Virus record (IMG/VR): IMGVR_UViG_3300044701_002172
Span: 62,001-126,000 of that record
Length of the DNA: 64,000 nucleotides
From: an uncultured virus (IMG/VR IMGVR_UViG_3300044701_002172)
Lineage: Duplodnaviria > Heunggongvirae > Uroviricota > Caudoviricetes
Reading direction: 5' to 3' (one strand)
Below, piece after piece: positions 1-36,785 of the stretch. The stretch's first letter is position 1. Each line of letters begins with the position of its first letter. A model generated the notes under the pieces. That model was not told the DNA's origin and searched no databases. It was given only the letters and a program-made list of their open reading frames with translations. The position numbers and the translations under genes were made by a program.

Positions 1-3000
1 TAATCTTCTGTCAGATGAAGCAAACGCTGTAATATCACCTGTACAAGACAAATCACCTGTATTGCTAATCCAAGCTACGTCAGAACTACCTCTACGGAAT
101 CTTACAACTTCAGTTGAACTTGCTCCAGCATTAATATACCATCTGTTTGAATGGTACTCAAGCTTACCTTCGCTAGCACCAGCATCGCCAGTCCAAGTAG
201 CAACGTTATCTTGACGGAAAGAGCTAGCTCCTCCTAGACGAAGAACACTGTTAGTTCCGCTAGTAAATGTGAATTGAGCACTACCAGCAAGAGCACCATT
301 GTTATTATATTGAACCTGAGTATTAGATCCACCAATATCAAATGTTGCCCATTCAATACCAGAAGCAGTTGATTTAATAAATTTACCAGCTCCACTATTA
401 GCTAAGAAAATAGTTGCTCCGTCTCCAGATTGATAAGGAACACTGCCAGCAGCACCGCCAGCAAGATTAGTGGCGGTTGTTGCTGTTGTAGCGTTACCAC
501 TCAAGGCAGCAGTAATAGTACCAGCAGAGAAGTTACCCGAAGCATCTCTGGCAACAAGATTTGTATTACCAGAGGTTGAAGCAGTAACATTAATTGTTCT
601 TGCTGTGCCACCATTAAATGTAGTGCCAGCGTCATAAGTTAGATATGTTCCAAGTGATAAAGCAGCAGCAGTTGAAGCAGTGATTGTAATGTTAGCACTG
701 CCATTAAAGGATACTCCGTTTATTGTTCTGGCAGTTTGTAGTGTCGTGGCAGTAGAAGCGTTACCACTTAAGGTGGCAGTGATAGTACCAGCAGCAAAGT
801 TGCCAGAACCATCTCTCTTAACCAGCGTGTTATTCGTATTTAATGAAGAAACTGGGTTATTGCCTGTGTGTAAAATAGTGTACTTAGTTGAAGTACCAAC
901 GGACCATCCACCCCAGAATAAATCGTTAGTAGCACCATCAAGACCAAAGTAACCAGCGTAATCTCCAGATACGTGGAACGTTAAGAAAGCATCTCTTCCA
1001 GCAGTATCATTGAAAATAGTTAATGTTTTATTACCAGAACCAGAACCTTGATCACCAGAAGTAGTGTTAATAAGTACTTGATTGCCAGCCAAGAAAGTTA
1101 AACTTCCTGACATAGTATCACCAGACTTCAATACGTTTAGAGAAGCAGCTCCAGTCAAGGAAGCGGTAATTGTCCCAGCAGCAAAGTTACCAGAACCATC
1201 TCTTTGAACAGCAGTGCTAGCATTGTTTAATGAGGAGAACGTAATATTACCAGCATTCCAAATTACGTTGCTGTTTAATGTAAGAGCATTAGCGTTTCCT
1301 GCTAAAATATTTAATGATCCACTACCATTGGCTGAGTTTCCGCCAGAAACAGCAAGACGTACATTATAAAGACCAGCAGGAGAACTACTAGATCTAAAAT
1401 CAATTACTGGAACAGAAGCAGTTCCATCAGTTCTTCCAAGTGATAATCTAGCAGTGCCAGAAACAGATTCTAGTTTAGCAACATCAAATGTTCCAGCAAA
1501 ATCACTGATATTGTAATCATTAATAATTTCATTTGTTTGTGTATTACCAATTCGGAAAGCAGCAGCAATATTACCAGATAATAATCTACCAGTTAAGATA
1601 GTATAATCTAGAGTGTCATCAATATTATTTGAAGTTGATACATTAAGAAGTTCAAAATCACCAACTTTAATACCAATCGAATCAAATAAATCAATCGTTA
1701 ATCCAGATACAAATGGTGCTTCCGAAAGAATCTTACCAGAAATATAAACATCAAAGAATGTTTGAGCAACATAAGATTTTACAGTTAATGAATTATCAAC
1801 TGATGTAGATCCCAAGAAAGAAGAAATGTGGGAAGGACCAATGATACCAGAATTAATATTATAAGCATTTTGATAGAAAGTACCTTGTCTGCCATCAAGT
1901 AGGTCGGCATCCATTCCAGTGCCAACACCATCATTAATAGAAGTCCAAACTTTAGCCCAGGTGCTGAATGAAGCAACACCAGAACCAGAACCACGAATCC
2001 ATAGGTTATTGTTATCAGTGAAAGCTAATTGCCTTACGCCACCACCAGAGGCATCAGAACCAGTACCAAATTGACGGAATGTAATTACACCGTGTCTTGT
2101 ACCACCATCGGCAAGACCGTCAGCAGTATTGTTTCTCGTATCAGCAATAACACCTTCATTGAAAGTTGATGGAGATGGCGATGAAGATGGGTTATTAACG
2201 CTTGTTGTTAATCTGAGAGTATTAGCTGATTGACCAGAGATATCAATGCCATACAAACCACTACCTAGTTTATCTGGGCTAATAGAAAGATTAACTAAAT
2301 TCTGACCATCTCTATAATATAAACCTTGTTGACCATCGAGTAAGTCGGCATCAAGACCAGAACCAGTACCAGTTTTAAGTTCTACTGAACCATCACCTGA
2401 ATCTCCAATGTTAAATTGTGACTTTTTAAACCTAGCAACGCCAGTGTTGCCATATTCATTAGCTTCAAGAGTTTTAGCATCAACACGCTTAATGTCGATA
2501 CCAACATTAGCAAAGTTTTTAACACTTGTATTTGTTTTTGCTTCAAGAACAGCATTAGCACCCAAACCAATTTGAACTGGCATTTGAGTGATAGAGAAAT
2601 CTGATGAATAAGCACTACCTCCACTAGTTACTAGTACAGTTGTGATGCTACCACCTTCAATGGTAAAGTTAGCTTTTAAACCACTTCCTGTACCACCAGA
2701 AACTGCTAGATCAAAATATTGTCCATCAGTAAATCCAGTACCACCAGAAGCGACTAAAATTTTATCTACAAAATTACTTAAAGTAAGTGTAGCATCTAGT
2801 AGAACAGGAGATTCTGGTCTACTAAATTCAATAATGGTATTTTGTGTAATAAGTTGGGTTACTGATGTTGAAAGAGTAACAGTAGTAAATGAAACGTTAT
2901 TAACTACTGTTACAAATGTATTTGCTACAGTAGTTCCTGTTGGAACACCTGGAGCTATTACCAAATGACCAATTAAAATTTGGTTATTTAATTTAAATTG

Positions 3001-6000
3001 TAATGTATTTTGATTTGCTGCTGTTTGATCAGTAGTAAAATCAAAATATCTTTCTTCTGCTGGTTTGATTGATTGTACTGCTAAAGCATAAGAAGAGTCA
3101 CCTCTCAAGAATGAGAAGGAGTTAGCTTCTCCAGCATTACCAGCAAGTCTGGAAGATGAAATAATACCAGAAGTAATATCTTGTGCTGAAATTGAAGAAG
3201 TGGAAAGTGATACCCAGTTACTTGGATTAGATCCAGAAGTATTAACTGTTCTTATTACAGGTACAGTAACTGGAGAAACGTTAGTAGATTGAATTGTGTC
3301 AGTATCAGCAATCTTGATGTTGTTTACAATATCAATATAAACTCTAGATTCAATTAAACCATTTGCTTCTGCTTGTACACCGCCCACTCCAGGGGCAGAG
3401 AACGAAATTGATGGAGGTGAAGTATAACCAAATCCGCCTTTGTAACCATTATAATCTACGATAGTTACTGTAACTACTCTTCCATTAACGACAGTACACG
3501 AAGCTTGGGCTGATACTCCTCCTGGTTGATCTGGAGCACTAATAGAAACTGAAGGAGGATTTAAATCGTCATAACCATTACCTTGGTTAGAAATACTAAT
3601 TCTATAAAGAACACCTTGACGATATTCTGTAACTTCTCCTTGGCCAGTAGAAAGGCTGCCAGTAATAAACGCCCCAGTAGCAAACTCTAAGTCAGTATTT
3701 ACTGAAATACCAATAAACTGACTTTCTAAATCATTATTTAAAATATATGATGTGGTTGTTCCAAGTTCAATAGCAATGTCACCAGCAAGTGGACCTTCTA
3801 AAGCAAGTCTTTCTGCTGTAGTTTGAATCGTAAATACGTTGAATGGTCTTAGAGCTGGAATTTGATCTAGAGAAATCTTACCAGAATCAGTAAGTTCTAC
3901 AAGGTTTCTTGGAACGGCGTTGGTTGAATATGGTTTGTTGAGGTATTGACCTAGGTTATTTGAAATGTAATCTTTAACAGCTTTCTGTGTTGGAATTTTA
4001 CTATCAGAAGAGAAATTACCACCAAGAGTGTTAGAAGCATCGAAACCAGTAACAACAACGTCACCTCCTTTTAGCTTAAGAAACTCAACTTCCGAGATCG
4101 AAACCGTACCAGTGAAGGTAATGTTACCAGTTCTGTTCTCAATCTTAGCAAAGTAACCTACTTTAAAGTCACCAAGTTCATCCGTACCAGAAGTATAAAC
4201 ACGACCGTAAGCTTGAGATACTTGCTCAAATGCTTCATTTTTAACGCCACCATTTTCTGGGAGTGCTCTATAGTCGTTACCAGCACCAGCATATTCCCAA
4301 GTGTGGGAAGATGAGTTAACAATTGATGGTCTGTGTAAACGAATTTGCTTGCCAACTAGTTCAGCATTACCAACTGTAATTGCTTGACCATTACTCTTTC
4401 TTTGGAGAAGCATTGCTTCATTAATATCAATAGTCGAAGTAAATGGAGGACCAACAGTAGTTAATCTTACGTTATCAACAAAATATTCAATATCAGAATC
4501 TTGGTTTTCGTAATCAGCAAATTTAACAATATAGTGCTCAAGAGGTTCTCTTCCGAGACCACCAACAGTAAATACAGTTCTACCTGTAGCAGTTGTAGTT
4601 ACATTAGTAATTGTACCAATATCAAATGCGTATGGATCTTTTCTGAATCCTCTAGCTCTTAGAGCATATGTACCAAAGTTGGTAGCTGAGTTTGTAACAG
4701 AAGCATAACCACCAGTATCAGCATAGATTCCATCCTGAGCAAATAGAACGAATACAGAAACTAACTGAACATATCCATCATTTACAATTCTATAACCAGT
4801 ACCACCGAAGGAAATAATGGTAAACTGAGCAGCAACCATCGACTTACCCTGATTTGGGAAAGTAGCTTTTGGATCAGCATTTCCAATTGGTGGATTTAGA
4901 CCTGGACGTGGGCAGTTTGGTTGACGTATTTTATCTCCGTCAATTTCACAACCACCACCACCAAGGAATGAAATTACAGAGGCGTTTTGAATATATGGAG
5001 ATGCCTCAATGAATGGAAGATCCAAGTAAATAGAATCTACGTTAACTCTCTTATTGTCAGCATCATAGATTGTATTTTCTGGGAATACAACTGTTGGTTC
5101 AAATAAAGTACCGAAACTCTTTTCTACTACGCTACCATTAGCAAGAATATCATCTAAAATGCTAAACGCTGTTGTAATAGTAGTAGCAACGTTAGCACAT
5201 GTTGGAGTATTTGTATCAACAATTGTAGTTGAATCAATGAATTGAGGAGCCGTAGCAAATTCTGGAATATAAACAACGCCAGTGCCATCGCCAGTCTTCC
5301 AATTTCTCATAGCAAGGATTGCTAAATCTCTTGCTTTAGTAAATGCTTGTCTAGTTGGTAGTAGTTCACTTTGTGGAATACCAGTTAAGGCATTTCCAGT
5401 GTAATAAGATTCTCCTGAAGTAACAATACCAGCATTACCACCAAGAATTAAATCTCTTCTGAGAGCACCCAGAATAAATCCAATATCTCTACGGCACTTA
5501 ATAGTGGTAGTAGTTAAGAAATCTCCTTCATTAATAGCAGGAAGTGAAGTTAAATTACCAGCAGCAATAGCAGTTGTAGCAATAGCAATAAGAGTACCAA
5601 TGCTATTACGTACATCAATACATGAATCTGGATTATTGTTATTGTTTAGTTCTCCTTCTACCCCATAACCAAATACAGTTGGAAGATATCCAGGATTTGG
5701 ATCACCTGTAATTGTTAAATCTCTTTCATTTAGCTGATTGGTTACAGCTAATCTCATTACATCTCTTGCTTTGTTGAAGGCAGTGATTGACTGTGAAGTT
5801 TCTCCTACCAATCCATTTGAAAGAGGAATTGTATTAGTTAAGAAATATCTCTTGGTTGCTCTAATAGTATTCTTGTTGCCACCATCATATAAGTCAGAAG
5901 CAACAGCGTCAACGATATAACCAATGTCTCTACGGCACTTGCTTTCGCTAGCAAAATAAGTAGTAGCAGTCTCAGCAGGTAGACCAGTTAGATTACCAGC

Positions 6001-9000
6001 ACTAATTCTATCTGTGATGAGTGTAGTAAAGTTAGTAATTGCTGTCTGAACATCTGAGCAAGCAGCAGGATCTGTATTAGCTACATTTCCACCGCCACCA
6101 CCGTAGGTAGCAGGACCAGTGCTGACTGTAAGATCCTTATAGTATAAACCGTTATAAACGGCAAGCTTCATCATGTCTCTTGCTTTATTGAAAGCAACTA
6201 CAGACTGTGCTTCTTCTCCTAATAAACCGTCAGAAATTGGTGATCCGCTATTAAAATATTGAAGAACAAAATTTCTCGAATACTTGTTGCTTCCAGAGAA
6301 AAGATCTAGAGCAATAGCATCAACAAAGTATCCAATATCTCTACGGCACTTGAGATTACCACTTGCTTTTCTCACAGCAGGAAGACCTGATGTATTGCCA
6401 GTTTGAAGTGTAGTTGTGAGAATAGAGACAAGGTTGCTAACAGCAGTTCTAACGTTAGCACATGAAGATTCGCTAATGTTAGATAGTGTATCTGGATCTG
6501 CTGTAATAGTTGTATCCTTAACATATAGCTGATTTGTTAAGGCTTTGTTCATCCAATCTCTTGCTTTGTTGAAGGCAACAATAGACTGTGATACTTCACC
6601 ATCCAATCCATTTGTTAATAGAGTGGTAGCATTTTCAAAATATCTGAGGGTATAATCAATAATTCTTGAGTTACCGCCTGTTTGAATATCATAGGCAACA
6701 GCATCTACGATGTAACCGATATCTCTACGACACTTAGCTTCTCCAGCAGGAGTTACGCTAGCACCTGTAGTAGTTGGTGGAAGAACATTAGCACCATTAA
6801 TATTGCCAGCAAGTAATCTTGTTTGAGCAATAGTTGCTAGTGTTTCTACGGCAGTTTGTACATCAATACAAGCAGCGGCATTTCCTGATTCTAGAACAGC
6901 AATATCTGGACCTGGAACACCATAAGAAGCAGGACCAGCAGTTATAGTAAGATCCTTTATATAAAGCTGATTACTTACAGCTTTCTTCATCATTTCTACT
7001 GCCATAGTAAAAGCAGTATCAGCTTCTGATTCTTCTCCAGATAATCCGTTGGCAATTTTAATACCAGTTTCTGGATCAAAGTATAATTTAGTAAATCCTA
7101 AAGTAAATTGGTTGCCACCATCATAAATGTCTAGAGCAATAGCATCAACAAAGTAACCAATATCACGCTTACACTTAGCTTCGCCAGCAGTTACGAAAGA
7201 ATCTCCAGTAGTTGGTGTTGGTAGAGCATTAGCGCCATTAATATTACCAGCAGTAATTCTGTCGGTGATTAATGTGGTGAGTGTTTGTAGTGCTGATTGA
7301 ACGTCAGAACAAGCTGTTGGGTCGGTATTAGAAACTGATCCGCCACCACCACCATAATTAGTAGGACCAGCAGTTACACTAAGATCTATGTAAGCTAACT
7401 GATTAGTTACAGCTAAAGCACACTGCTCTCTCGCTTCATTAAAAGCAAATACTGATTGAGCAGTTTCTCCTACTAAACCATTAGAAATAGCTAAACCACT
7501 TCCATCAAAATAAAGTTTTGTGAAAGCAATTGAATACTGGTTTCCTCCAGTTGCCATGTCAAGAGAAATGGCGTCAACAAAGTAACCAATATCACGCTTA
7601 CATCTAGCGTCGTCATTACCAGGCACAGTAAATCCTGGGTATTGTGTTTGCATTGAAGCAAAAGCATTATCAATAATTAATGTTCTGTTCTTCTGAATTA
7701 AACGATAACCATCTTTAAATCTAGATCTAGCGTTAGTTTGAGCATCACCAGGATAGTAAAAATCTGGATAATCTACAGCAATTTGTGCTGCTGCTCTATC
7801 AATAATTTCTTGACGATTCTGTTGAATTAATCTGTAACCATCCTTAAATCTTGATCTAGCAGTAGTTTGAGGATCATTTGGATAGTAGAAATCAGGGAAT
7901 TGAATAGCAATCTCAGCAGCAGCTCTTACCTTAATTTCTTCTTTGTTTGCTTTGATTAAATTGGCAGCATCATAGTATCTGCTCTGGTAATCTCTGTTTA
8001 TATTTGGAAGACCAATTAGGTTTCCAGCAGTTAATCTTGTAGTAATAATTGCTGTTAGGTTAGCAATGTATGTTTGTACATCAGAACAAGCAGTTGGATC
8101 TGTGTTAGGTACTGTAGTGCCACCAGAAGCATAGATAGCAGAACCAGCAGTTACACTCGTATCAGTTACACCAAGCTGGTTAGCAACTGCTTTCTTCATC
8201 TCATCTCTTGCTGAATTAAAAGCAAGAACAGATTGTGGAATTTCACCAGCTAATCCATTAGTAGTCAAACTACCAGCATTATCAAAATATTGCTTTAAGA
8301 AAGCAATAGAATTTGAATTGCCTCCTAAGAATACATCAAGAGATACAGCATCAATAAAGTAGCCAATATCACGCTTACACTTAGTACCATCTGGATCGGC
8401 AGGAATAGAGCCACCAGAAGAAGTATAAGCAGTGTCAATGATAGCAGTTTTATTTTGCTGAATTAAACGATAAGCATCAGCATAACGGGAACGCTCGTTA
8501 GTTTGTAGATCACCTGGATAATAGAAATCTGGATATTGTACAGCAATTTCAGCAGCAGCTGTATCAACAATAGTTTCCTTATTCTTTTGAATTAAACGAT
8601 AAGCATCATTGTATCTGCTTTGAGCATTAGTCTGAGTATCACCAGGATAGTAAAAATCTGGATGCTCAACGGCAACTTCTGCTAAAGCACGGTCAAGAAT
8701 TTCTTCTCTGTTAGCTTTAATTAGATTTGTAGAATCCTTGTATCTGGCAGCAGAAGCATTAGGACTGATAAAAAGTTCTGGATAAGCGTCTTCAATGTAT
8801 CGTGAAGTTTCTTGCTTAATAAACTCTTGGTTTCTAGCAATTAAATAGCTAGCTTCTACAAATCTATCTGTTTGGTTATTGGAAATAATAGCAATGAAGA
8901 GATTTGCTAAGTTATTAATAGCAGCTTCTACGTTAGCACAATAAGGCCAAACAGAATCAATTGTTACATCTGGATCGAAGTATCTAGAAATATTAGAAAA

Positions 9001-11448
9001 CTGAGGAGAATACAAATCGTCATTTTCATTAATTCTCCATCCTCTCATAGCAAGGACAGCTAAATTTCTAGCAATATCAAATGCTCTAATTGTTTCTGAA
9101 AGTTCGGTAGCAATATAGCCAATGCCAGTACCTAAAACATAATACTTAGCAGCTTCAATAGTGTTATGGTTTCCACCATATTCCATATCACGAAGAATAG
9201 CACTTACAAAGTGTCCGATATCTCTAATACACTTTGCTTCGTTTGGATTGGTAAATTCAGGAAACTCAGCAATTACTTGCTTATAAGTTTCATCTTTGAT
9301 AAACTCAAGATTATTCTTAATTAGATTTCTAGCATCTTGATATCTTCTAGAAATATAAGGAGTAGCTTCAAACTTGTTTGGTGAGTTTAAAAGAGATAGA
9401 GTTACATAATGTGATACAGGAGAAACTGTAGCATTTGCTGGAGTGTAATTGCTATCAGTAAACTCAGGCATGTTATCTTTAGGGATAACAAATCTTCTAG
9501 ATCTACTATCATCATCAATTAGCACACCAACTTTATCAAGGTCGTAAATCCTTTGAATGCCATTTAAGTTTGCTAATTCAGGAGGAAGACCAGAAATTCT
9601 AACTTCTTGACCTTCGTGAAAATCATGAATATTATCTATACCTTGTAATTGATTTGTATAGAAAATAATACCACCAACTTGAGCTTGTTGAGAAGCATCA
9701 ATTCTTACAATTGGGAAAGTTGTTGTTGTATCAGTTCCATGTTCTACAACTTCGCCTTCTGGTCTGATAGATGAAAGATCTACAATAGTAAAAGTAAATT
9801 CTTGTGCCCAATCAGATCCATTCCAAGTATATGTAATACCATCATTTGGATGGGTGTATACATCACCAATTGATGGTGACGATGGCCACCCAGTATATTC
9901 TACGGGAGCTTCAATATAATAACGAACACTTTCACCCTCAGCAAATACACCAACAGAAGTCTCAAAATCAACAGAACCTTTTTGATATGCTGTTGGTCCT
10001 GTAGTCGAATCAAAAGTTACAACTTTAACAGAACCAATAGCACTAGTGTTTACACCGTTAATTGTTTCTCCAACAACTAACTTATTACCGCCAGCATTAA
10101 AATCAAATACTGCTCTAAAAAGTGTTTTGCCGAAAATTTGATGACCAATAGGGAATCTTCTCTTGAAGTCTCCTCCGTATGTTGGATCATAATATAATCT
10201 TTGCTTATCATCAAATACACAAGCAAAGTTCCATGTGGATACGGGATTACCCAGAGTGTCTAGTTTATCCCTAAAGACCATACCAGTGATATAGTTTTTA
10301 TCGGCAAACTTAAATACGTTTTTACCAGGATTGTTTGGTCTTACAATTACAATTCTAAGCGAGTCACCAACAACCGAACAATCGGGTGGAATAGAAATTG
10401 GGTTATCTTCTACATAATCACCACCAGCGATAATAACAGTTTCTTTTATATTTCTAGATTCTGTAGCAATTTGACAACCACGTTTGATTGTTCTTACGGG
10501 AGAAGCTACAGATCTACCATCATTTTCATCATCACCAATTTGCTGAGAAACATAAACACGACCACCAACGTCATTGGTAGCAAGATTTAATACGTATTCA
10601 GTGGTAGCAATTTTATTTGAATTATCTCCTAGAGGAGGAGTGATAGATCTTGGCCAAGAAAGTTCACCAAAATATGGTTGGTTTGAATCATTTACACGGA
10701 AACCAACATGCTCTAACTGAACTGTTCCATTGGTTACTATTCCCTCAGTATGTAATGGAGGTGTTGTTCCAGTAATGCCAGTATTTTTTGCTCTATATAA
10801 ATTTCCTTCGAAATAACGGATAGCATTTTTCGTTAACGAAACATTCGAAACCCAAACTTGTTCTGAATTATTATCAAATAATTTAAGATATGGTGCTCTA
10901 ATATTAAGATCCGCAGTTACAAAATTTTCTAGGTCTAGATTAAGAATACGAGCAGTATCTGAAATGATAGATGAAGACGTTCTAATAGCACCGTTTACAT
11001 CAATTTCATAATCGATAGTATCCAGTGTACATGTCGCTACAGCACCGCCACCTGTAGTATCACCCTCGGCATTTTGAATTGTGATTGAAGGTGGTGTGGA
11101 ATAACCAGATCCTGGATTAGATACAATAACAGCTATAACTCTACCGTTAGATAAAATTGTGCTGGCGGTAGCTTGAATAGAACCGATACCAGCGGGCGGA
11201 GGATCTATAATTACTAAAGGGGGGGAAGTATACCCCGTTCCTTGGGCAGTGACATTAATATTATCTACACGACTTCCTGTTCTATTAACACCAATTCTTG
11301 GTAATTTGGTAGTTGAATCAATTAAAGCTCTAAAAACTTCCTTTTCATCAGATCCTTGACCCGATCTAATTATAAAATTATCGCTACCAATAATATTAGG
11401 CGAATCAGATTTGATGTATTGCTTATCAGAATTAAATTCTAATCCCAT
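1..11448 (-). CDS. Giant tail fibre/tailspike-like virion protein (>3,816 aa, 3' end outside window): N-terminal GSGY-type repeats, split pectin-lyase-like beta-helix, 8 phycobiliprotein-like helical repeats, fibre repeats, start of a peptidase-S74 autocleaving chaperone
   Basis: ATG at 11448 (MGLEFNSDKQYIK) downstream of GATAAATA. Segments translated at 10560, 9350-5150, 5000-4650 and 60-1 all fall in the same frame. Last residues are TGDLSCTGDITAFASSDRRL (S74-type SDxRL motif). Absent from the ORF track, most likely because its stop lies outside the window. Confidence 0.85.
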   Translation of the reverse strand, partial: MGLEFNSDKQYIKSDSPNIIGSDNFIIRSGQGSDEKEVFRALIDSTTKLPRIGVNRTGSRVDNINVTAQGTGYTSPPLVIIDPPPAGIGSIQATASTILSNGRVIAVIVSNPGSGYSTPPSITIQNAEGDTTGGGAVATCTLDTIDYEIDVNGAIRTSSSIISDTARILNLDLENFVTADLNIRAPYLKLFDNNSEQVWVSNVSLTKNAIRYFEGNLYRAKNTGITGTTPPLHTEGIVTNGTVQLEHVGFRVNDSNQPYFGELSWPRSITPPLGDNSNKIATTEYVLNLATNDVGGRVYVSQQIGDDENDGRSVASPVRTIKRGCQIATESRNIKETVIIAGGDYVEDNPISIPPDCSVVGDSLRIVIVRPNNPGKNVFKFADKNYITGMVFRDKLDTLGNPVSTWNFACVFDDKQRLYYDPTYGGDFKRRFPIGHQIFGKTLFRAVFDFNAGGNKLVVGETINGVNTSAIGSVKVVTFDSTTGPTAYQKGSVDFETSVGVFAEGESVRYYIEAPVEYTGWPSSPSIGDVYTHPNDGITYTWNGSDWAQEFTFTIVDLSSIRPEGEVVEHGTDTTTTFPIVRIDASQQAQVGGIIFYTNQLQGIDNIHDFHEGQEVRISGLPPELANLNGIQRIYDLDKVGVLIDDDSRSRRFVIPKDNMPEFTDSNYTPANATVSPVSHYVTLSLLNSPNKFEATPYISRRYQDARNLIKNNLEFIKDETYKQVIAEFPEFTNPNEAKCIRDIGHFVSAILRDMEYGGNHNTIEAAKYYVLGTGIGYIATELSETIRAFDIARNLAVLAMRGWRINENDDLYSPQFSNISRYFDPDVTIDSVWPYCANVEAAINNLANLFIAIISNNQTDRFVEASYLIARNQEFIKQETSRYIEDAYPELFISPNASAARYKDSTNLIKANREEILDRALAEVAVEHPDFYYPGDTQTNAQSRYNDAYRLIQKNKETIVDTAAAEIAVQYPDFYYPGDLQTNERSRYADAYRLIQQNKTAIIDTAYTSSGGSIPADPDGTKCKRDIGYFIDAVSLDVFLGGNSNSIAFLKQYFDNAGSLTTNGLAGEIPQSVLAFNSARDEMKKAVANQLGVTDTSVTAGSAIYASGGTTVPNTDPTACSDVQTYIANLTAIITTRLTAGNLIGLPNINRDYQSRYYDAANLIKANKEEIKVRAAAEIAIQFPDFYYPNDPQTTARSRFKDGYRLIQQNRQEIIDRAAAQIAVDYPDFYYPGDAQTNARSRFKDGYRLIQKNRTLIIDNAFASMQTQYPGFTVPGNDDARCKRDIGYFVDAISLDMATGGNQYSIAFTKLYFDGSGLAISNGLVGETAQSVFAFNEAREQCALAVTNQLAYIDLSVTAGPTNYGGGGGSVSNTDPTACSDVQSALQTLTTLITDRITAGNINGANALPTPTTGDSFVTAGEAKCKRDIGYFVDAIALDIYDGGNQFTLGFTKLYFDPETGIKIANGLSGEESEADTAFTMAVEMMKKAVSNQLYIKDLTITAGPASYGVPGPDIAVLESGNAAACIDVQTAVETLATIAQTRLLAGNINGANVLPPTTTGASVTPAGEAKCRRDIGYIVDAVAYDIQTGGNSRIIDYTLRYFENATTLLTNGLDGEVSQSIVAFNKARDWMNKALTNQLYVKDTTITADPDTLSNISESSCANVRTAVSNLVSILTTTLQTGNTSGLPAVRKASGNLKCRRDIGYFVDAIALDLFSGSNKYSRNFVLQYFNSGSPISDGLLGEEAQSVVAFNKARDMMKLAVYNGLYYKDLTVSTGPATYGGGGGNVANTDPAACSDVQTAITNFTTLITDRISAGNLTGLPAETATTYFASESKCRRDIGYIVDAVASDLYDGGNKNTIRATKRYFLTNTIPLSNGLVGETSQSITAFNKARDVMRLAVTNQLNERDLTITGDPNPGYLPTVFGYGVEGELNNNNNPDSCIDVRNSIGTLIAIATTAIAAGNLTSLPAINEGDFLTTTTIKCRRDIGFILGALRRDLILGGNAGIVTSGESYYTGNALTGIPQSELLPTRQAFTKARDLAILAMRNWKTGDGTGVVYIPEFATAPQFIDSTTIVDTNTPTCANVATTITTAFSILDDILANGSVVEKSFGTLFEPTVVFPENTIYDADNKRVNVDSIYLDLPFIEASPYIQNASVISFLGGGGCEIDGDKIRQPNCPRPGLNPPIGNADPKATFPNQGKSMVAAQFTIISFGGTGYRIVNDGYVQLVSVFVLFAQDGIYADTGGYASVTNSATNFGTYALRARGFRKDPYAFDIGTITNVTTTATGRTVFTVGGLGREPLEHYIVKFADYENQDSDIEYFVDNVRLTTVGPPFTSTIDINEAMLLQRKSNGQAITVGNAELVGKQIRLHRPSIVNSSSHTWEYAGAGNDYRALPENGGVKNEAFEQVSQAYGRVYTSGTDELGDFKVGYFAKIENRTGNITFTGTVSISEVEFLKLKGGDVVVTGFDASNTLGGNFSSDSKIPTQKAVKDYISNNLGQYLNKPYSTNAVPRNLVELTDSGKISLDQIPALRPFNVFTIQTTAERLALEGPLAGDIAIELGTTTSYILNNDLESQFIGISVNTDLEFATGAFITGSLSTGQGEVTEYRQGVLYRISISNQGNGYDDLNPPSVSISAPDQPGGVSAQASCTVVNGRVVTVTIVDYNGYKGGFGYTSPPSISFSAPGVGGVQAEANGLIESRVYIDIVNNIKIADTDTIQSTNVSPVTVPVIRTVNTSGSNPSNWVSLSTSSISAQDITSGIISSSRLAGNAGEANSFSFLRGDSSYALAVQSIKPAEERYFDFTTDQTAANQNTLQFKLNNQILIGHLVIAPGVPTGTTVANTFVTVVNNVSFTTVTLSTSVTQLITQNTIIEFSRPESPVLLDATLTLSNFVDKILVASGGTGFTDGQYFDLAVSGGTGSGLKANFTIEGGSITTVLVTSGGSAYSSDFSITQMPVQIGLGANAVLEAKTNTSVKNFANVGIDIKRVDAKTLEANEYGNTGVARFKKSQFNIGDSGDGSVELKTGTGSGLDADLLDGQQGLYYRDGQNLVNLSISPDKLGSGLYGIDISGQSANTLRLTTSVNNPSSSPSPSTFNEGVIADTRNNTADGLADGGTRHGVITFRQFGTGSDASGGGVRQLAFTDNNNLWIRGSGSGVASFSTWAKVWTSINDGVGTGMDADLLDGRQGTFYQNAYNINSGIIGPSHISSFLGSTSVDNSLTVKSYVAQTFFDVYISGKILSEAPFVSGLTIDLFDSIGIKVGDFELLNVSTSNNIDDTLDYTILTGRLLSGNIAAAFRIGNTQTNEIINDYNISDFAGTFDVAKLESVSGTARLSLGRTDGTASVPVIDFRSSSSPAGLYNVRLAVSGGNSANGSGSLNILAGNANALTLNSNVIWNAGNITFSSLNNASTAVQRDGSGNFAAGTITASLTGAASLNVLKSGDTMSGSLTFLAGNQVLINTTSGDQGSGSGNKTLTIFNDTAGRDAFLTFHVSGDYAGYFGLDGATNDLFWGGWSVGTSTKYTILHTGNNPVSSLNTNNTLVKRDGSGNFAAGTITATLSGNASTATTLQTARTINGVSFNGSANITITASTAAALSLGTYLTYDAGTTFNGGTARTINVTASTSGNTNLVARDASGNFSAGTITAALSGNATTATTATNLAGGAAGSVPYQSGDGATIFLANSGAGKFIKSTASGIEWATFDIGGSNTQVQYNNNGALAGSAQFTFTSGTNSVLRLGGASSFRQDNVATWTGDAGASEGKLEYHSNRWYINAGASSTEVVRFRRGSSDVAWISNTGDLSCTGDITAFASSDRRL
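5150..9350 (-). repeat. Eight nested intragenic protein repeats (A half RY-D---LI--N---I-D-A---IA---PD; B half KC-RDIGY--DA---D---GGN...C-DV)
   Basis: CxRDIG Cys codons at 9229, 8377, 7600, 7171, 6730, 6346, 5935, 5494; second Cys at 8938, 8086, 7309, 6868, 6460, 6058, 5620, 5197. Confidence 0.9.
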
Positions 11449-11510: not shown

Positions 11511-12020
11511 TTACCAAGAAACTGATACAACTTGTATGTTAGAAATCCACTTAACAACGCCAGTTGCTCCATTAGCTTCTACGCTAAAACTAAACTCACC
11601 AGCGTTACCAGTATCGTAATTTTCTACTGACCAAGTTTGTCCTAATGGAACATCATCTCTAATAATTGTATTTAAAGATGCTAAAGTAGAAACATCACCA
11701 TTAGAGGCACATTTAACTGTTGTTTCTATTTTAGTAGAGTAAATTCCTATACCATTTTGCCCAACAGCAATTATATTAGCGGTAATAAAATTTACTGTAT
11801 TATTTTCTAATTGAATATAAGAATTTTGTGTACTACTTTTAGATAAAATAGCAGTATTTAATGCTTTTAAAATAAAATCAGATTTTTTCGTGTCTGTATA
11901 ATTAACATTTTTTAATTCAAACGAGTTAACATTTTGAAGATCATAATTATCAGAAATAATAGTGGTTTGTTTTACTCCAAACCCACCTTCTGAATTAAAA
12001 GTTTTTGTATCTACTGGCAT
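11511..12020 (-). CDS. Putative virion structural protein (169 aa)
   Basis: Packed in the tail operon between two structural genes; beta-rich composition. Confidence 0.7.
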   Translation of the reverse strand: MPVDTKTFNSEGGFGVKQTTIISDNYDLQNVNSFELKNVNYTDTKKSDFILKALNTAILSKSSTQNSYIQLENNTVNFITANIIAVGQNGIGIYSTKIETTVKCASNGDVSTLASLNTIIRDDVPLGQTWSVENYDTGNAGEFSFSVEANGATGVVKWISNIQVVSVSW

Positions 12021-12025
12021 TTGTA

Positions 12026-15000
12026 TTATCTAATAAAGGTTTTTAAAATAGTAAATTCTATACTGGAACCATCGGAAATAGCATTATCTAATGTAGTTGT
12101 TAGTCTAACATCTCCATTAGAATCGAAATCAAAAGTAGCGTCGTATAAAAGATTTCCCGAAAGTAAGCTTTCGTACTCTATGTTATATATGTTTGCTCCG
12201 TTAGCAATAATATTATAATCAACCATATGTTTTTCGTAAGTTGATAAATCAACAGCTATAATAGTTAACTTACAAGCAGAAGCTAAATCAGGATCATATA
12301 AAACATAAGAATTAAAATTATTAGTTCCTTTTAATAAAGTAAATTTATTAGTTTCTAATACAACATTTGCCAAACCAAAATAAGTTAAAGTTCTATCTAA
12401 AATTTTCTCTCCTGTATAAGAACCTTCAGTAAAAGTTTTATTTACGTAGATATCACCAGTAGCACTTAATCTTAGTAAAGCATCATTAGTAACACCAGAT
12501 TTTAATCCGATATCTAAATTATTTTTGCCAGAATAAAGCTTTGTTATTGTAGAACTTGTCGAATCAATACCAAAGGTATCACTGGAGTATCTGACACCAT
12601 CGACATTAATGTTTAGGATATTATTATTTGATGTTATAGTATTTGCTGTTTGGAATGTTAGTGCTGTTTTTGTAACACGTAAAGTATTGTCTCCGTCATT
12701 ATAAAAATATAAGATGTTTTCATTAGCTCCAGATGATGATTCTGGGATAATATAGGTATTACCATCAACGTCTCTTACACCACCTAAACTTGTCCAAGCA
12801 GTGCCGTTATATCCTTCGTATTGTGTTGTTGCTGTATTAAATCTAACAGCACCAGCTTGAGGAATTCCTCTATTTGAACTATTTCCTACAGGAAGAACAA
12901 ACGAAGTAGTTGAGTTAACTTTAACTAATTTTCCAGTAAATGGAGTAATAGTAATATCTTCTGTTACGCTAGAAATATCACTATCCGTAAGTTTTAATTT
13001 GTTGTTTACATTTACTACACTATTAATATTAACGTTATTAATATTATTAAATGTCAAATTACCGTAAATAGTTCTAATAAATTCATAATCATTTGTAGTT
13101 CCTGTTGTATGTGTAGGACCAGCACCACCAGAAGTTAAGTTTGTCGTTATTCTATAAACATTAGTTTCATTATATACTAAATTATTTTCCTCATAAACTG
13201 TAGCAGGCTCCCATTTTTGAACACCAACTATATCAATTGATGATATAGTATTAGCAGATCTAAATTCAAGTTTATCCTGATCTAACTGTAATGAATTAAA
13301 GTTATTATTGTAAAAATATAAAATATTTTCGTTAGATCCAGCTGAAGTTTCTGGAATAATATACGTGTTGCCATCAACGTCTCTTACGCCACCTAAACTA
13401 CTCCAAGCAGTTAATCCATAACCTTCAAATTGTTGATTGCTTGTATTAAATCTAATAGCTCCAGTTGTTGCTGAACCTCGTTGTCCAGTTGTTCCAAAAG
13501 GAATAACTAAACATGACTGAGAATCAACAACTACATTAGTGCCCACAGAGGGTCTGATTGTTAACCCAGATGATTGGGTTGCTATTAAATTTGAAGTAAA
13601 AGTTAAATTTTGATTTACACTTAATGAAGTATTATTTAAATTAAGAGAACCATTAGAAGAAACTATGGAATTTATACCTTCAAAAACTAGTTCATTTTCT
13701 GTGATGTTTAATGTATTTGTATTATTATTATAGAAATAAAATACATTATCATTTGCTCCTACAGAAGATTCGGCAAGCAAATATGTATTGCCATCAGTAT
13801 CTCTAACACTTCCTAAGCTAGACCAAACATTTGTGTCGCCATCGTAACCTTCAAATTGTCTGGTATCAGTATTAAATCTAATAGCTCCAGTTTCAGCATC
13901 TAGCTGTGGTCTTTGTACCTGAGAACCTACAGGAACAATTAGTGCTCTGTTAGAATCGAGCTTTATATTTTTTCCTGGGGAGGGCTTTAAAATTAATGGA
14001 GTTTCTAAAAGAGTAGAAATTGTATTATCTACAATAGTTGTAATATCATTTACATTTAATCCATCAAGACATTTAACTTCACCGTTGGTAGTTAGATTAC
14101 CGTTAGAAGATTCAATTGATAAGGTTGTGGCATTATTATCAATAATATTAATTCTACTTGTATTGATATTAATATCGTTAACTACATCAAATTCTAAAAT
14201 ATTTGATGATGATAATTTTGGTGTTGAAATATCTGTTATTGCTGATAATGTGTCTGTTACGATTACATCTGAAGCAATATTATCAATAAACCCAGATGTT
14301 CCTGTAAATGATACTGCCTCGACATCTCCAGTTAAAACTTCTACTTTTACTGGATTTGTTACAGATATACCAGTTGCTGTGAATATAAATCCACTACCAT
14401 CACTCGTATCTATAATTTCATATGTTGCTTGGTCAGCAATATTATTAACACCAGATATTACAATTACATCTTCTACATCATATCCTGTTCCAGGATCATT
14501 TATTTCAATATTAGTAATATTGCCACCACCGATTTCGGTAATTACAATAGTGGCGGTTCCACTTCCAATAGTAATTAAATCATTGATTGAATATCCCGAT
14601 CCAGGAGTATTAATTACTGCCGAAGTTACTTCTCCGCCAGTTACTCCAGATACAGAAAATTGACCTCCCGTACCATCAGGAATTGTTAATACGTCACCAA
14701 TTTCATAATTTTGCCCGCCGTTTACAATATTAATACCTGAAATAGTGCCACCCAAAACAGATGTTACTGTTGCTGTGCCTCCAGTACCCCCATCAATAGT
14801 TAAAATATCATTTACTTGATACTCAACTCCCCCTGAATTAATAATAACTGAAGAAATCTCACCTCCAGGAGTAACCGAAGATATAGATAATATAACATCA
14901 TCTGGCGCTGGCTCTCCAGTCTCTGGATCTAATGCCTGAGAACCAGGAATAGACACAAGTTCTCCTTGAACATATCCACTACCACCAGAATTTATAGTTA

Positions 15001-16156
15001 TATTTGATGGAATTCCTCCAGCATCAACCACGTAATCAAAAGTTAAACCAACCCCAGTTGATAAGAAATCTAAGGGATTTGTTGGTTGATTTGTATATGT
15101 TCCTGGAGTGTAAACGCTACCAACATTATCTACATTAAAAGAAGAAACAACATTTTGTGGTTCTGCTATAATATCTATCGTAGCATTATTGCCAAATCCA
15201 CCGCTTACAGTTGTTGTTGATGTGGTGTATCCAGAACCAACCGAAGTTAAACTAAGTTGATCGATTTCTCCAGCATTTAGTACAGAAATTGAAACTGATG
15301 CCCCAGTTCCATTTCCTCCTGTGGGACTATAAACTCCATCAAAATAATTAGAACCAGGAATTATATTTTCTATAGTTCCAATAATACCTCCCGTTGAGGC
15401 AACAATATCTAGAGTAAGACCAGAACCTAATCCACCAGTGGTAGATACGTTCTGTGTAGTAACATATCCTTCTGTTCCATTTAAAAATCCAATCTGTTCA
15501 GGAACTCCATTTACTGAAGCAGTAATATCTACTGTTAGACCAGTTCCAGATCCGCCAGTCGTAGGTACATTTAAACCAGAAACATAAGTTTGCCCACTGG
15601 TTATTAAACTTAATTCGACTACTCTTCCCGTGGGATCATTCGATATTCCTTGAGGAGCAACAGTTAGATCATCACCAATTACATAACTATAACCGCCATC
15701 AGTAATAATTACATCAGAAACAGATCCATTGACATCTACGGTAATGGTAGCTTTTGCTCCCGTTCCTGTACCACCCAAAACATTTATATCTGAATAAGTT
15801 CCTTCAGCATATCCAGATCCATTATTAGTAATTTGTATATTTGCTGTTGATAAAGATCTTTTTTCAGTGTATAAATTTTGAGCAAAATATGATCCAGTGG
15901 GGGATAATGATAAAACAGGTTTTCCACCACCAGCAAAACCTAGACGTTGAGCGCCATCTTTGTAAATTCCTAAAGTAATATCAGATTCAAATGTCAATGA
16001 TGGCGAAGTTAAAGATCCATCAGCATATTCTGTTTTAAAAACAGTAATGCTAGATTGTCCCGATGTATAATCATACACATCTTGAGCAATTAAATTAATC
16101 TTTTGCCTTTGAGTTTCAAATGTGTCTGTTTTAGCAACGGATCTAAGAACTGCCAT
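12026..16156 (-). CDS. Virion structural/fibre protein (1376 aa) with Gly-rich GSGY repeats and three GAIRFN..FEGY..W.SLG.VRD.DGNTY repeats
   Basis: Long ORF; repeat types typical of cyanomyovirus tail/baseplate fibres. Confidence 0.8.
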   Translation of the reverse strand: MAVLRSVAKTDTFETQRQKINLIAQDVYDYTSGQSSITVFKTEYADGSLTSPSLTFESDITLGIYKDGAQRLGFAGGGKPVLSLSPTGSYFAQNLYTEKRSLSTANIQITNNGSGYAEGTYSDINVLGGTGTGAKATITVDVNGSVSDVIITDGGYSYVIGDDLTVAPQGISNDPTGRVVELSLITSGQTYVSGLNVPTTGGSGTGLTVDITASVNGVPEQIGFLNGTEGYVTTQNVSTTGGLGSGLTLDIVASTGGIIGTIENIIPGSNYFDGVYSPTGGNGTGASVSISVLNAGEIDQLSLTSVGSGYTTSTTTVSGGFGNNATIDIIAEPQNVVSSFNVDNVGSVYTPGTYTNQPTNPLDFLSTGVGLTFDYVVDAGGIPSNITINSGGSGYVQGELVSIPGSQALDPETGEPAPDDVILSISSVTPGGEISSVIINSGGVEYQVNDILTIDGGTGGTATVTSVLGGTISGINIVNGGQNYEIGDVLTIPDGTGGQFSVSGVTGGEVTSAVINTPGSGYSINDLITIGSGTATIVITEIGGGNITNIEINDPGTGYDVEDVIVISGVNNIADQATYEIIDTSDGSGFIFTATGISVTNPVKVEVLTGDVEAVSFTGTSGFIDNIASDVIVTDTLSAITDISTPKLSSSNILEFDVVNDININTSRINIIDNNATTLSIESSNGNLTTNGEVKCLDGLNVNDITTIVDNTISTLLETPLILKPSPGKNIKLDSNRALIVPVGSQVQRPQLDAETGAIRFNTDTRQFEGYDGDTNVWSSLGSVRDTDGNTYLLAESSVGANDNVFYFYNNNTNTLNITENELVFEGINSIVSSNGSLNLNNTSLSVNQNLTFTSNLIATQSSGLTIRPSVGTNVVVDSQSCLVIPFGTTGQRGSATTGAIRFNTSNQQFEGYGLTAWSSLGGVRDVDGNTYIIPETSAGSNENILYFYNNNFNSLQLDQDKLEFRSANTISSIDIVGVQKWEPATVYEENNLVYNETNVYRITTNLTSGGAGPTHTTGTTNDYEFIRTIYGNLTFNNINNVNINSVVNVNNKLKLTDSDISSVTEDITITPFTGKLVKVNSTTSFVLPVGNSSNRGIPQAGAVRFNTATTQYEGYNGTAWTSLGGVRDVDGNTYIIPESSSGANENILYFYNDGDNTLRVTKTALTFQTANTITSNNNILNINVDGVRYSSDTFGIDSTSSTITKLYSGKNNLDIGLKSGVTNDALLRLSATGDIYVNKTFTEGSYTGEKILDRTLTYFGLANVVLETNKFTLLKGTNNFNSYVLYDPDLASACKLTIIAVDLSTYEKHMVDYNIIANGANIYNIEYESLLSGNLLYDATFDFDSNGDVRLTTTLDNAISDGSSIEFTILKTFIR

Positions 16157-16340
16157 TTCTTATTATCTCTCTGAGAAGCTGTTTGATTTCAGATATTTCT
16201 TCCTTCAAAGTATTTATGTCATCTCTCATGACATTAAATTCTGTTGACAATTTTTTTGTGGGGCGTTCTTTACTTATGATCGCCCCAGTAGTCATGTCTC
16301 TAACTAAACTTGGATGCCCCTCTACAGAAATGTATTTCAT
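16143..16340 (-). CDS. Small hypothetical protein with C-terminal coiled coil (65 aa)
   Basis: Overlaps both neighbours (TGATG coupling at 16340); heptad pattern INTLKEEISEIKQLL. Confidence 0.7.
   Translation of the reverse strand: MKYISVEGHPSLVRDMTTGAIISKERPTKKLSTEFNVMRDDINTLKEEISEIKQLLREIIRNGSS
16211..16218 (-). promoter_or_regulatory. Possible late promoter (CATAAATA)
   Basis: 55 nt upstream of the 1376-aa gene, inside the small ORF. Confidence 0.45.
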
Positions 16341-19300
16341 CAGTATGAAGCAACGGCACGAAGATCTTGAATCTTCGGAATATAAGCTGGGTCTTCAGTT
16401 TTCATAACAATTTTAATAGCAAATGATGTAAATTCTGGTAAATTATTAGCACTATATTTAAATTCTTGATAGAATGATTGCTTTTCAAATTGCCCAGAAA
16501 TTGAATTAGATACTGTAGCTAAATCATCATTATCAGGATTGCCATCTACATTGAAATAATTCCAATTAATGTCATCAAAATTAGATTGAGCCGATGTTTC
16601 TTTAATTTTATACAAAACTTTAACATTTTCCGTATCTTTTAAATTAATCGTTAATCTAACATCAATAGAAGTTCCTGGAGAATTGATCGAAACTTCTTTA
16701 GTGACATATTTAGAAACAGCGGAGCTATTCTTAGCATCAGTTTCTTTAACATAATCAACTCCAGTAGTAAATTCCATGGAAGCAACTTCCACATATTTTT
16801 CGTCAGAAGATCTTAAAATATCGCCAACTCTAAAAATATCTGGAGTTTGATTTGCTGAATTTTCTTGTCTAACAAAAGGACTATCTTTAGTAATTTTACT
16901 AGTATAATCATTATTAATTGGAGCATATGAATTTTCAACAATCATTTCTTTATCTTTGGAATCCCAAATAATTACTCTACCGTTAATTTTGTTTGAATAA
17001 TCTACGTTTACATTTTGTGGATAATAAGCAATTACGTTAGAATTTTCACTAAAGTTAAACTCTAGCTCAGAAATTGCCGAAATTGTAATATTTATTGTAT
17101 CAATTATAATCCCATCAGAACCAATTAATGTGGCAGTTTCATTTTGAATAAACGGAGTTTTGGTTTTTAATCTAATTAAAACAACGCTGTTAGTAATTTG
17201 AACAATTGTACCTTCTGCTTTAGATGTTGTTCCCACCAAAGTTTGGTTTTGTCCAAGCTGACCAGCTGTTCCTACAATGTTTAAAGATAAATTGTATAAA
17301 GGTAAGAAACGCAATATTTGATTTCTTTTTCCATATCTATTTTCAAACCCAGTAGAATTTTCTACACGAGAAGATTGAGTTTTTACCGAAGATAATCTTA
17401 AATCAATAACAGGAGAAATATTAGAATTGGAAGAAGATAAAATAAATTTATATGTGAGAGATCTATCAATTTGATTTAATGTTTCGTTAATTCTGGATGA
17501 TAATATTTTTTGATTAGTGAAAAACTGCTCTTCGTTAATAAAAGTCTTTTCAAAATCTGTTTGAGAATATGAAACATAATTAGTGGTGTTTGAATCTACA
17601 GGAACAATGTTAGTTGTCTTGACAAAAGATTCTACATTAGTGCCATCTAGTTTTAAAAATGCTACCTGAGCATAAAGTTTTTCGAATTTTCTATTATAAG
17701 AAGCGAGAACTTTATTTCCTCCCCCCAAAACGCTAGCCCCAGCTCTATTAGGACCCACAATATTGTATGTATCGATACCCGAATTAGTAATTTTGAATAA
17801 TTCACTATTTAAACTTACCGATGAAATACCGCCAACGTCTTCACAATTTTTAAAGAATACGTAAGATTTTCCTTTATCTTCAAATCCATTATCTCTGTGA
17901 GATACTTTAATAATAGAATTATTATTTTTAAATAATGATGAAGTAGCATTAGTAGCAGACCTTACACTAGTTTCAAATGGAGAAGTATCTAGAAGCTCGT
18001 AACCTAGGTTTTCATTTGTCACCAAAAGCTCGGCATTTCTTGAGGTATCAAATTCTGCTTTATAAAGGTTAAATTTAATATCTTCAAATAAATCTTCCGT
18101 CCAGTTGTCTGTGTTTTGTGATTTGTACACTGATCCTAATGAAGGTTGAGCGGAAACTACGTTGCTAGTAGAAATTTCAGTTTCTCCCAACTTAGAAGCC
18201 CACAACTCATATTCAATAGAATCTGTTTCAACGTTTAAAGCATACTCTGTGTTATTTTGTAAGTAAACTGGATATTTAAAATTAAATCTAGTAGGAACAG
18301 TAGATGGTGTCACACCGTCTCTATCGACAGCTACACCCATTGAAACCGCTGGGGCATCAATCTCAATTACTGACTCGATTACAGCTCCTCCTGAGCCCGT
18401 ACCGACGCCTCTAATAACAACTGACGGGGCTTCGGTATATCCCCTACCAGTTAATGATAAGTTTGTGTTATAAATTTTTCCTTCAGAAACATCAACTGTA
18501 CCCGTGGCTGTACTGCCACCTGGCAATTGAGGACTTTCAATAATAATAGTAGCACTTGTATAATTTTCGCCCACCTGAGTCACTTTTAAGTCAACAACTT
18601 TTCCAGAATCCTTAGCTATAAACACAGACACATTAGTATTGTTTCTGGCATTATACTCTCGAATAGAAGGTATAATTAATTGTTCATTTTGTACAAATGA
18701 TACTCCATTATGATTTTCTAAAATTAAAGTATATACTTGTTCTTTATTTAATTCAAAAGTTGTTGATGTTTCGTCTCCAATTTGAATATTATTTTTATCA
18801 AATACTTTTAAAACAGGTCCACTAGCGTTGGAATTTTTTCCATTGACGAATTCAGATTTTTTAATGGAGATAGTTTCTACATCTCCTGTTACGTAAATTT
18901 TTAATAAAGTTTCTGGTCTTAGAGTACATTCAGATCCAGGAACAATATATTTTCCAGGCTTACCAGTATCAACGTTAGTCAAATAAGTTCTAATTGGAAT
19001 CGAAGAACTCTTCTTGGCAAAATATAAATCAACGCCAGTAACAAATATACCCCCCTCGTAATTTTCAATTTTAATAGTTTGAGCTAGAGGATTTGGTTTA
19101 ATTTCTAAATCAGTATTGCTATTAACAAGCTGAACTCCTTCGTTTGCTTTAAAGAATGCTGTTTCTGTAGATACAATAGAAGGAGGATTTTGTGGAATTA
19201 CACCAGTAGCATAGAATTTAACATCAGCATAAGTATCTACATTTTCTTTAATTTCGTTTGAAGAACTCGAAGTAAATCTAATTGTTTTAGCTCCAGCAAC

Positions 19301-24415: not shown

Positions 24416-24449
24416 TTTACCCCGACATTATACTAGTATCTCGTAGTAT

Positions 24450-24456
24450 TATTTAG
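24450..24456 (-). promoter_or_regulatory. Late promoter (CTAAATA)
   Basis: Intergenic between gp8 and the VrlC-like gene. Confidence 0.55.
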
Positions 24457-24474
24457 AAGGGTAAAATGTATAAA

Positions 24475-26304: not shown

Positions 26305-26339
26305 TGAAGAATCTCTCTATTGAAATTATTTGTCTGATT

Positions 26340-26353
26340 TATTTATATTTATA
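26340..26353 (-). promoter_or_regulatory. Two overlapping T4 late promoters (TATAAATA x2)
   Basis: tatttata at 26340-26347 and 26346-26353, upstream of gp8. Confidence 0.75.
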
Positions 26354-36781: not shown

Positions 36782-36785
36782 CTAA

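Follow-up and report, generated by a model that had tools for sequence, protein, structure and literature searches.

Evidence for nested phycobiliprotein beta-like globins in a giant protein of tail-fibre type from a T4-like cyanophage

The window analysed here, a stretch of 64,000 nucleotides, is part of a linear virus record of 128.8 kb (G000) which is about 66% complete and derives from a T4-like cyanophage. Among the open reading frames of the record, baseplate gp6 and gp8 are recognized by Pfam, and others, with their N-termini read by eye, we take to be psbA-like, ferredoxin-like and T4-core-like genes. The left end is occupied by a giant fibre-type reading frame (Table 1), which matches PHROG 5342 'tail fiber protein' with an E value of 0 and is found in the same gene order as p091 of phage S-PM2. 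The last 89 residues, located outside the window's left end, constitute most of a Peptidase_S74-type chaperone, whereby the C-terminus of the full protein from G000 was assessed by eye and the Peptidase_S74 C-terminal domain (PF13884) was identified with E 1.5e-18 on P0002, a homologue of the same length. Peptidase_S74-type chaperones are folders of trimeric fibres.

With respect to the remainder of the window, the gp7-like protein of the upstream baseplate cluster (26354–36781, 3,475 aa) possesses a YHYH domain and lacks a phycobiliprotein-like domain, unlike the gp7-type proteins of P-HM2 and S-SZBM1, which do have it. Between 41600 and 44200, reading frames overlap on both strands and the GC content reaches up to 55% (at 42–44 kb), compared with approximately 30–38% elsewhere.

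Table 1. Features of the window (A, N-half and B, C-half of the repeat; partners and branches as predicted by bracket pairing)
Feature	Position	Strand	Remark
Giant fibre-type ORF	1..11448	-	Continues past the left edge of the window, which contains 3,816 of its 3,905 aa
A1	9235..9345	-	Domain 1, N-half with helices A/B; contiguous with B1
B1	8866..9234	-	C-half (helices E–H) of domain 1; Cys740 in CxRD, Cys837
A2	8746..8865	-	N-half of the outermost nested domain; partner B8
A3	8617..8745	-	Partner B7
A4	8488..8616	-	Partner B6; branch point, loop with two children (A5–B2 and the A6–B5 block)
A5	8383..8487	-	Contiguous with B2; tip of the short branch
B2	7981..8382	-	
A6	7852..7980	-	Partner B5; first part of the inserted three-domain block
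A7	7723..7851	-	Partner B4
A8	7606..7722	-	Contiguous with B3; tip of the long branch, depth 6
B3	7177..7605	-	A8 and B3 resemble phycobiliprotein beta subunits
B4	6736..7176	-	
B5	6352..6735	-	Last part of the inserted block
B6	5941..6351	-	
B7	5500..5940	-	
B8	5131..5499	-	Closing half of the nest
Two upstream genes	11511..16156	-	169 aa and 1,376 aa; order as in S-PM2 and S-WAM2; annotated as virion structural proteins
Upstream baseplate cluster	16340..38588	-	DUF4815 protein, gp8, gp7-like, gp6

Residues 702–2106 of the giant protein (window 9345–5131) form an array in which a motif scan reproduces exactly the order of halves claimed by the initial annotation, A B A A A A B A A A B B B B B B, with eight A and eight B, and iterated HMMs recover the same 8+8 halves. 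The subtype motifs quoted at that stage are present, although CANV is found in B5 as well, three residues follow SLD in the B2/B3 motif and the ending PDFYYPG is missing from A2. As a single 8+8 order has a 1-in-9 chance of being balanced like brackets, the window by itself proves little, and the case for nesting is carried by the homologues and by half-to-half similarity.

One N-half combined with one C-half is a phycobiliprotein beta-like globin, a fold that had gone unnamed initially. The giant protein matches the Pfam family Phycobilisome (PF00502) with E 2.7e-20, and a profile of 49 contiguous A+B units retrieves 130 PDB sequences at E ≤ 1 (best E 6e-6); the 60 matches listed are phycobiliproteins or their derivatives, with alpha subunits first. 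That the best PDB matches on the sequence level are alpha subunits is a point against our reading. In a structural comparison of A8–B3, taken from an AlphaFold model, each of the top 50 matches is a beta subunit or a chain of beta type. A8–B3 superimposes on beta chains of phycoerythrin and phycocyanin over 133–142 residues with Z 15.4–17.1 and a core rmsd of 2.0–2.3, and among 48,161 chains phycobiliproteins score higher than every other globin; with Foldseek by itself, there was no match at E ≤ 0.001.

The PF00502 match and the predicted model display the globin fold of helices A–H, with helices A/B in the A half, helices E–H in the B half and the split point in the B–E loop. N-terminal X/Y helices, involved in alpha-beta pairing, are absent, with the core match beginning at approximately chain residue 32, and Asn72, which is methylated in beta subunits, falls in a gap, the B–E loop that is the insertion site being shorter here. 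Instead of a free subunit of 160–180 aa, the domains are embedded and split in a giant protein. As the X/Y helices and the Asn72 loop are missing, the repeat is not a phycobilisome subunit.

Balanced nesting with bracket pairing, the core proposal of the initial annotation, is supported by the balance of the homologues, the similarity of the halves and the model of A6–B5, and for domains 2–8 we hold it with high confidence. The 190 distinct proteins parsed were drawn from 78 viral loci (the 80 best among 130 matches), five named phages and the best 120 of 615 protein matches. B halves were scored by four part-HMMs, as whole-B HMMs produce a false imbalance because B can itself be split, and the balance was tallied on A and helix E because the G and H parts are often missed. 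Comparison of repeat number in homologous fibres, recommended as a check, showed 157 of the 159 homologues uncut by a locus end to be balanced over a range of 1–15 domains and a depth of up to 10, with 30 balanced among the 32 distinct orders. The exceptions are P0114, which terminates within a domain, and the apparently whole P0029 with nine N-halves and ten C-halves. Even where a domain is split at other loops, the four-part parses still close. The P0001 family comprises 20 distinct proteins with the order A10 B7 A2 B5 and a depth of ten.

Congruence of the halves was assessed by correlation of similarity matrices instead of separate A and B trees, because A provides 33 columns only. For 225 split domains from 55 non-redundant proteins, r was 0.57 with bracket pairing, 0.11 with first-in-first-out pairing and at most 0.15 in 300 random pairings; the corresponding within-protein correlations were 0.64 and 0.23, with a random maximum of 0.42. 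For the window alone, bracket pairing gave r 0.74 versus 0.10 for sequential pairing and ranked first of 120 with the adjacent pairs fixed and 111th of 40,320 overall, the next pairing being close behind (0.739 versus 0.731). The top column couplings, learned on contiguous domains, reached z 2.81 for bracket pairing, 1.68 for sequential pairing and at most 1.89 in 20 random pairings, and whole coupling maps differ weakly between pairings (0.564 versus 0.543).

With respect to structure prediction, an AlphaFold model of A6–B5 (18 rows) has a pLDDT of 85.7 and a pTM of 0.88, and the single globins 4uii_B, 2d2m_D and 4u8u_C align with 110–133 residues across positions 1..529–531 of it (Z 6.0–7.2), bridging the first N-half and the last C-half as the proposed pairing predicts. 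In this model the alignments, which give range ends only, indicate that A6 and B5 form one domain. A model from A3 to B6, which contains one N-half in excess, has a pTM of 0.68 and a pLDDT of 79/86/80 in A3 versus 87/88 in A4; in fold searches, the two contiguous domains alone gave globin rows, and one non-globin row covers 20..913, beginning in A3 and not in A4. For the outer pairs A2–B8, A3–B7 and A4–B6 it is the sequence evidence that argues for the assignment.

The inner three domains had been described as a block duplicated into itself. The five domains of S-PM2 and of P0103 map to A1–A5 plus B1, B2, B6, B7 and B8, and in other five-domain homologues the B halves map likewise and the A halves less cleanly. 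As five-domain homologues match the window's array minus A6–A8/B3–B5, this block is a later insert into the loop of domain 4, so that part of the description stands, while a copy-of-self is clear for domains 3 and 6 alone. Domain 3 is closest to domain 6 (61%), domain 5 resembles domain 8 marginally more than domain 4 (63% versus 62%), and the likeness of domains 4 and 7 is weak (58%), domain 7 not being the closest relative of domain 4. Self-duplication of the block is plausible; it may also have been imported from a related fibre. L006 and P0004 possess additional paired units.

Insertion always into the same loop holds true in the window's protein, but homologues use two further sites, after helix E (L060, L062 and L076) and between helices G and H (L011, L015, L030 and others). 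Within a C-half of L060 (7948–9849), helix E is followed by an unrelated, beta-rich insert of about 90 residues. A 93–94% identical homologue (L004:3599–15121) has an in-frame internal deletion in the middle of B7 (helix G) with both cysteines kept.

The repeat was detected by tblastn in 224 of 50,697 phage records, 223 of them named cyanophages and one a 'marine virus', and many genomes encode the domain in two or three giant genes. A record identical to G000 across the giant fibre gene (G025, 98% complete) has a second giant gene (C1:2912–13423, 3,504 aa) with four phycobiliprotein-like domains in the order AABBABAB, in a region missing from G000. A profile search found 1,458 representatives at E ≤ 0.001. 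A plasmid collection yielded nothing beyond noise at E ~9. Members of a distant family (L094–L132, P0121–P0261) are giant proteins with up to approximately 34 mostly tandem CxRD globins, the A halves of which are poorly detected (60 of 141 proteins shown). They occur in T4-like phages of 200–330 kb, and psbA was absent from eight of eight such records tested. One member, P0268, is encoded on a contig of 569,909 bases.

When the profile is aligned with 76 phycocyanin-beta sequences, its invariant D, N, C, D and C coincide with Asp39, Asn47, Cys82, Asp85 and Cys153, the Cys153 part with low confidence (local E 7e-4, probability 27%). Asp39 and Asp85 are the residues that bind the two bilins. The chromophore cysteine in CxRD (Cys82/84) is present in all eight domains of the window and, among 974 segments, C is found in 99% and D in 100%. 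The equivalents of Arg84 and Asp85 are near invariant, and 407 of 420 fully parsed domains retain the complete set of D, C, R, D and C (equivalents of Asp39, Cys82, Arg84, Asp85 and Cys153). Among 205 distinct domains of the distant family, CxRD is conserved in 96–99%, the Asp39 position is D in 7%, and any second Cys was found in 16 of 142 domains. Residues aligned with those for pigment attachment are retained in the eight domains, and pigment may therefore be carried by the virus particle itself. With respect to the chemistry, T-type lyases are described to attach bilin at Cys155 (PMC2327270, available part), and CXRD globins of heterotrophs to bind bilin without a lyase and to be photoinactive (PMC10151467, available part). 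The combination of nesting and bilin binding we judge to be the somewhat more probable state of affairs.

All ten cpeT-bearing cyanophage genomes tested have the domain. In a tally of ten cultured cyanomyoviruses plus G025, G033 and G038, cpeT was found in nine genomes, each of which also has the domain, whereas B3 and G038 possess the domain alone and P-SSM2 and S-SSM7 have neither, an association that is not significant (p 0.08) and that concerns related genomes. Canonical cpeT is located at most ~3.5 kb upstream of a domain-bearing gene in six of six genomes (S-PM2, S-RSM4, S-WAM2, Syn1, G033 and G025), which may be one inherited arrangement. The sole cpeT of G000 is divergent and 53 kb away from the giant fibre gene; this divergent cpeT-like gene (PHROG 488) is found at G000:C1:8669–9193, outside the window, and at G025:C1:14615–15136. 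As G025 combines the divergent gene with a canonical cpeT, 1.2 kb upstream of its second domain-bearing gene, it possesses two CpeT paralogues. No cpeT is present in the four distant-family genomes tested.

The distant family tends to occur together with a phage bilin reductase. Among records at least 90% complete outside the cyanophage set, partial records being excluded, the domain is present in four of five genomes with a bilin reductase and in none of six without. Reductase and domain co-occur in G023, G049, G051 and G053, the genomes in which psbA was tested, and G068, G070, G071, G077, G086 and HTVC008M have neither. Fisher's test gives p 0.015, and 0.033 when G023, a genome located by way of the domain, is excluded, for genomes that were chosen via domain, reductase, ClpS or gp23 among larger contigs and are not independent. 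In the 320-kb group as well as in the 200-kb group, one member with both and one with neither are present. Of the partial records, 21 of 24 in one set and seven of eight in another have the domain and no reductase match; records of this kind include G004, G013, G075 and G076. Pelagiphage Mosig encodes a heme oxygenase and a reductase and lacks the domain in a full-sensitivity search, and P-SSM2 and S-SSM7 likewise have the reductase with the domain absent; a strict link between reductase and domain is ruled out by these three phages.

Heme oxygenase adjoins the reductase in G002, G003 and G023, and the two genes of Mosig (L224 39650–40886) lie directly upstream of neck genes. In three large phages (L133, L134 and L135), heme oxygenase and bilin reductase are part of a conserved cluster together with genes which, named by eye, are presumably small heat-shock-like and ClpS-like. 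G063 has two adjacent reductase genes. No reductase match was found in G000 (66% complete) or G025 (98%), and the neighbours of the giant gene are baseplate genes. What phages use their heme oxygenase and bilin reductase genes for is described as 'still enigmatic' in the available part of a published account (PMC11480375).

Cumulatively, we propose that the array would form a branched stalk of eight phycobiliprotein-beta-like globins within a tail-fibre-type virion protein. Domain 1 is contiguous; domains 2–8 would be nested, each child occupying its parent's B–E loop, and the chain would go out via the N-halves and return via the C-halves, six deep and with a fork at domain 4. Homologues with 1–15 domains suggest that such stalks would grow by insertion of whole domains or blocks into the B–E loop. 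Judging from the C-terminal S74 chaperone and the gene neighbourhood, a trimeric fibre anchored to the baseplate is probable. That every domain carries covalent bilin at the equivalents of Cys82 (beta-84) and Cys153 (beta-155), the bilin being provided by the host and the second site served by phage CpeT, we regard as reasonably likely; loading would take place in the infected cell, with CpeT acting at the second site. Evenly poised is the broader proposition that in many T4-like phages of water, not in cyanophages alone, virion bilin-globin arrays are the missing acceptors for the phage bilin genes, the second site being served by CpeT in cyanophages and the pigment being supplied by heme oxygenase and a PcyX/PcyA-type reductase where hosts lack a phycobilisome, which would make the virion a biliprotein particle. 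For the free virion, light screening or stalk stiffening by the pigment is a tentative, speculative suggestion, which we nevertheless favour over light-gated adsorption.

A nested globin stalk without pigment, where the captured fold serves as a rigid spacer or host-binding arm and the cysteines form a disulfide or are a relic, is the alternative that survives best, and still unlikely. The presence of the domain without cpeT in B3 and G038 is in line with it, bilin on the fibre is a prediction made from sequence, and two Cys per domain would suit one disulfide. The two Cys sites are, however, far apart in beta subunits, which counts against the disulfide version. Nor does an unpigmented stalk readily accommodate the distant family, where the CxRD Cys is kept without its partner Cys and Asp39 is lost along with the second Cys, or the near invariance of Arg84 and Asp85. 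Early mutations in a 3,338-aa protein of S-PM2d, which agrees with the orthologue in length, during coexistence with the host would fit a role in adhesion (PMC9910659, available part).

Within the pigmented stalk that we prefer, a more specific form would have the bilin act as a light sensor gating adsorption, which we consider improbable. Light-dependent adsorption of phages, for which a mechanism is lacking, has been ascribed to host receptors and/or tail fibres, with no dark adsorption by P-HM1 and P-HM2 and partial dark adsorption by P-SSM2 (PMC6628666, available part). The domain is present in P-HM2 and absent from P-SSM2, but a comparison of two phages proves nothing, and P-SSM2 still adsorbs less in the dark. 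Moreover, the domain also occurs in phages without psbA, and BBAGs, globins associated with the biosynthesis of bilin, were photoinactive where tested (PMC10151467, available part). Finally, we regard it as very improbable that the halves are merely loosely repeated or follow a different pairing register, such as one between the chains of a trimer, where swapping is invisible in a one-chain model: the A3–B6 model, with no globin row joining A4 and B6, and the weakly separating whole coupling maps leave room for it, but matching counts over 1–15 domains, four-part parses that close, the bracket similarity correlation and the globin alignments across the A6–B5 model all argue against it.

A pigmented, nested stalk would bear on three questions at once, the phage bilin genes, the target of CpeT, which in phages is assumed to serve host phycoerythrin (PMC10452541, available part), and light-dependent adsorption, and it is testable in cultured phages such as S-PM2. 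If true, the functional claim is possibly much larger than the structural one.

Compared with phycobiliprotein beta subunits (CpcB, CpeB and cryptophyte beta; PF00502), the phage domain shares the globin core (chain residues ~32–172, Z 16–17) and the CxRD cysteine, and residues of it align with Asp39 and, at low confidence, with the Cys at the beta-153/155 position. It differs in that it lacks both the X/Y helices and the Asn72 loop, in its identity of 11–20% only, and in being split and repeated in a 3,905-aa protein; a separate alpha partner was not found in the window's record. BBAGs, too, are CXRD globins that do not belong to the phycobilisome, and they are linked with genes for heme oxygenase and bilin reductase, but they are bacterial and encoded in a bilin gene cluster, and the available part of their description, by which we set them apart, mentions no phage or repeated form (PMC10151467). 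Their hallmark cluster with heme oxygenase and a pre-PcyA reductase is absent around the phage gene.

The giant 'tail fiber / short tail fiber / baseplate wedge' proteins of Kyanoviridae (S-PM2 p091, S-RSM4_214 and Syn1_032; PHROG 5342 and 4527) are encoded by the orthologous gene in the same position and are annotated merely as fibre or hypothetical. S-PM2 p091 has the layout of the window's protein minus the inner block, and the domain counts are eight in the window's protein, five in S-PM2 and four in S-WAM2. In listings and abstracts of the open-licence literature, and in the available parts of PMC2984593, PMC10452541, PMC13446030 and PMC9910659, we found no description of phycobiliprotein-like domains in phage structural proteins or of nesting in this protein.

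The closest parallel for the architecture is the Si3 insertion of cyanobacterial RpoC2, likewise a recursive insertion of one domain family, with eight domains on six levels (PMC13114784, available part). Six-level self-nesting is already known from Si3, and the phage globin array is a further case, which matches nesting over several levels, with one split pair seen in a model. Si3 consists of hybrid-motif beta domains in an enzyme, whereas the phage array is a helical globin in a virion-type protein, with 1 to 15 copies, up to ten levels and three usable loops. As a self-inserting globin, ten deep, forked and with three insertion loops, it equals or exceeds the six-level Si3 as given in the available part of the 2026 survey (PMC13114784).
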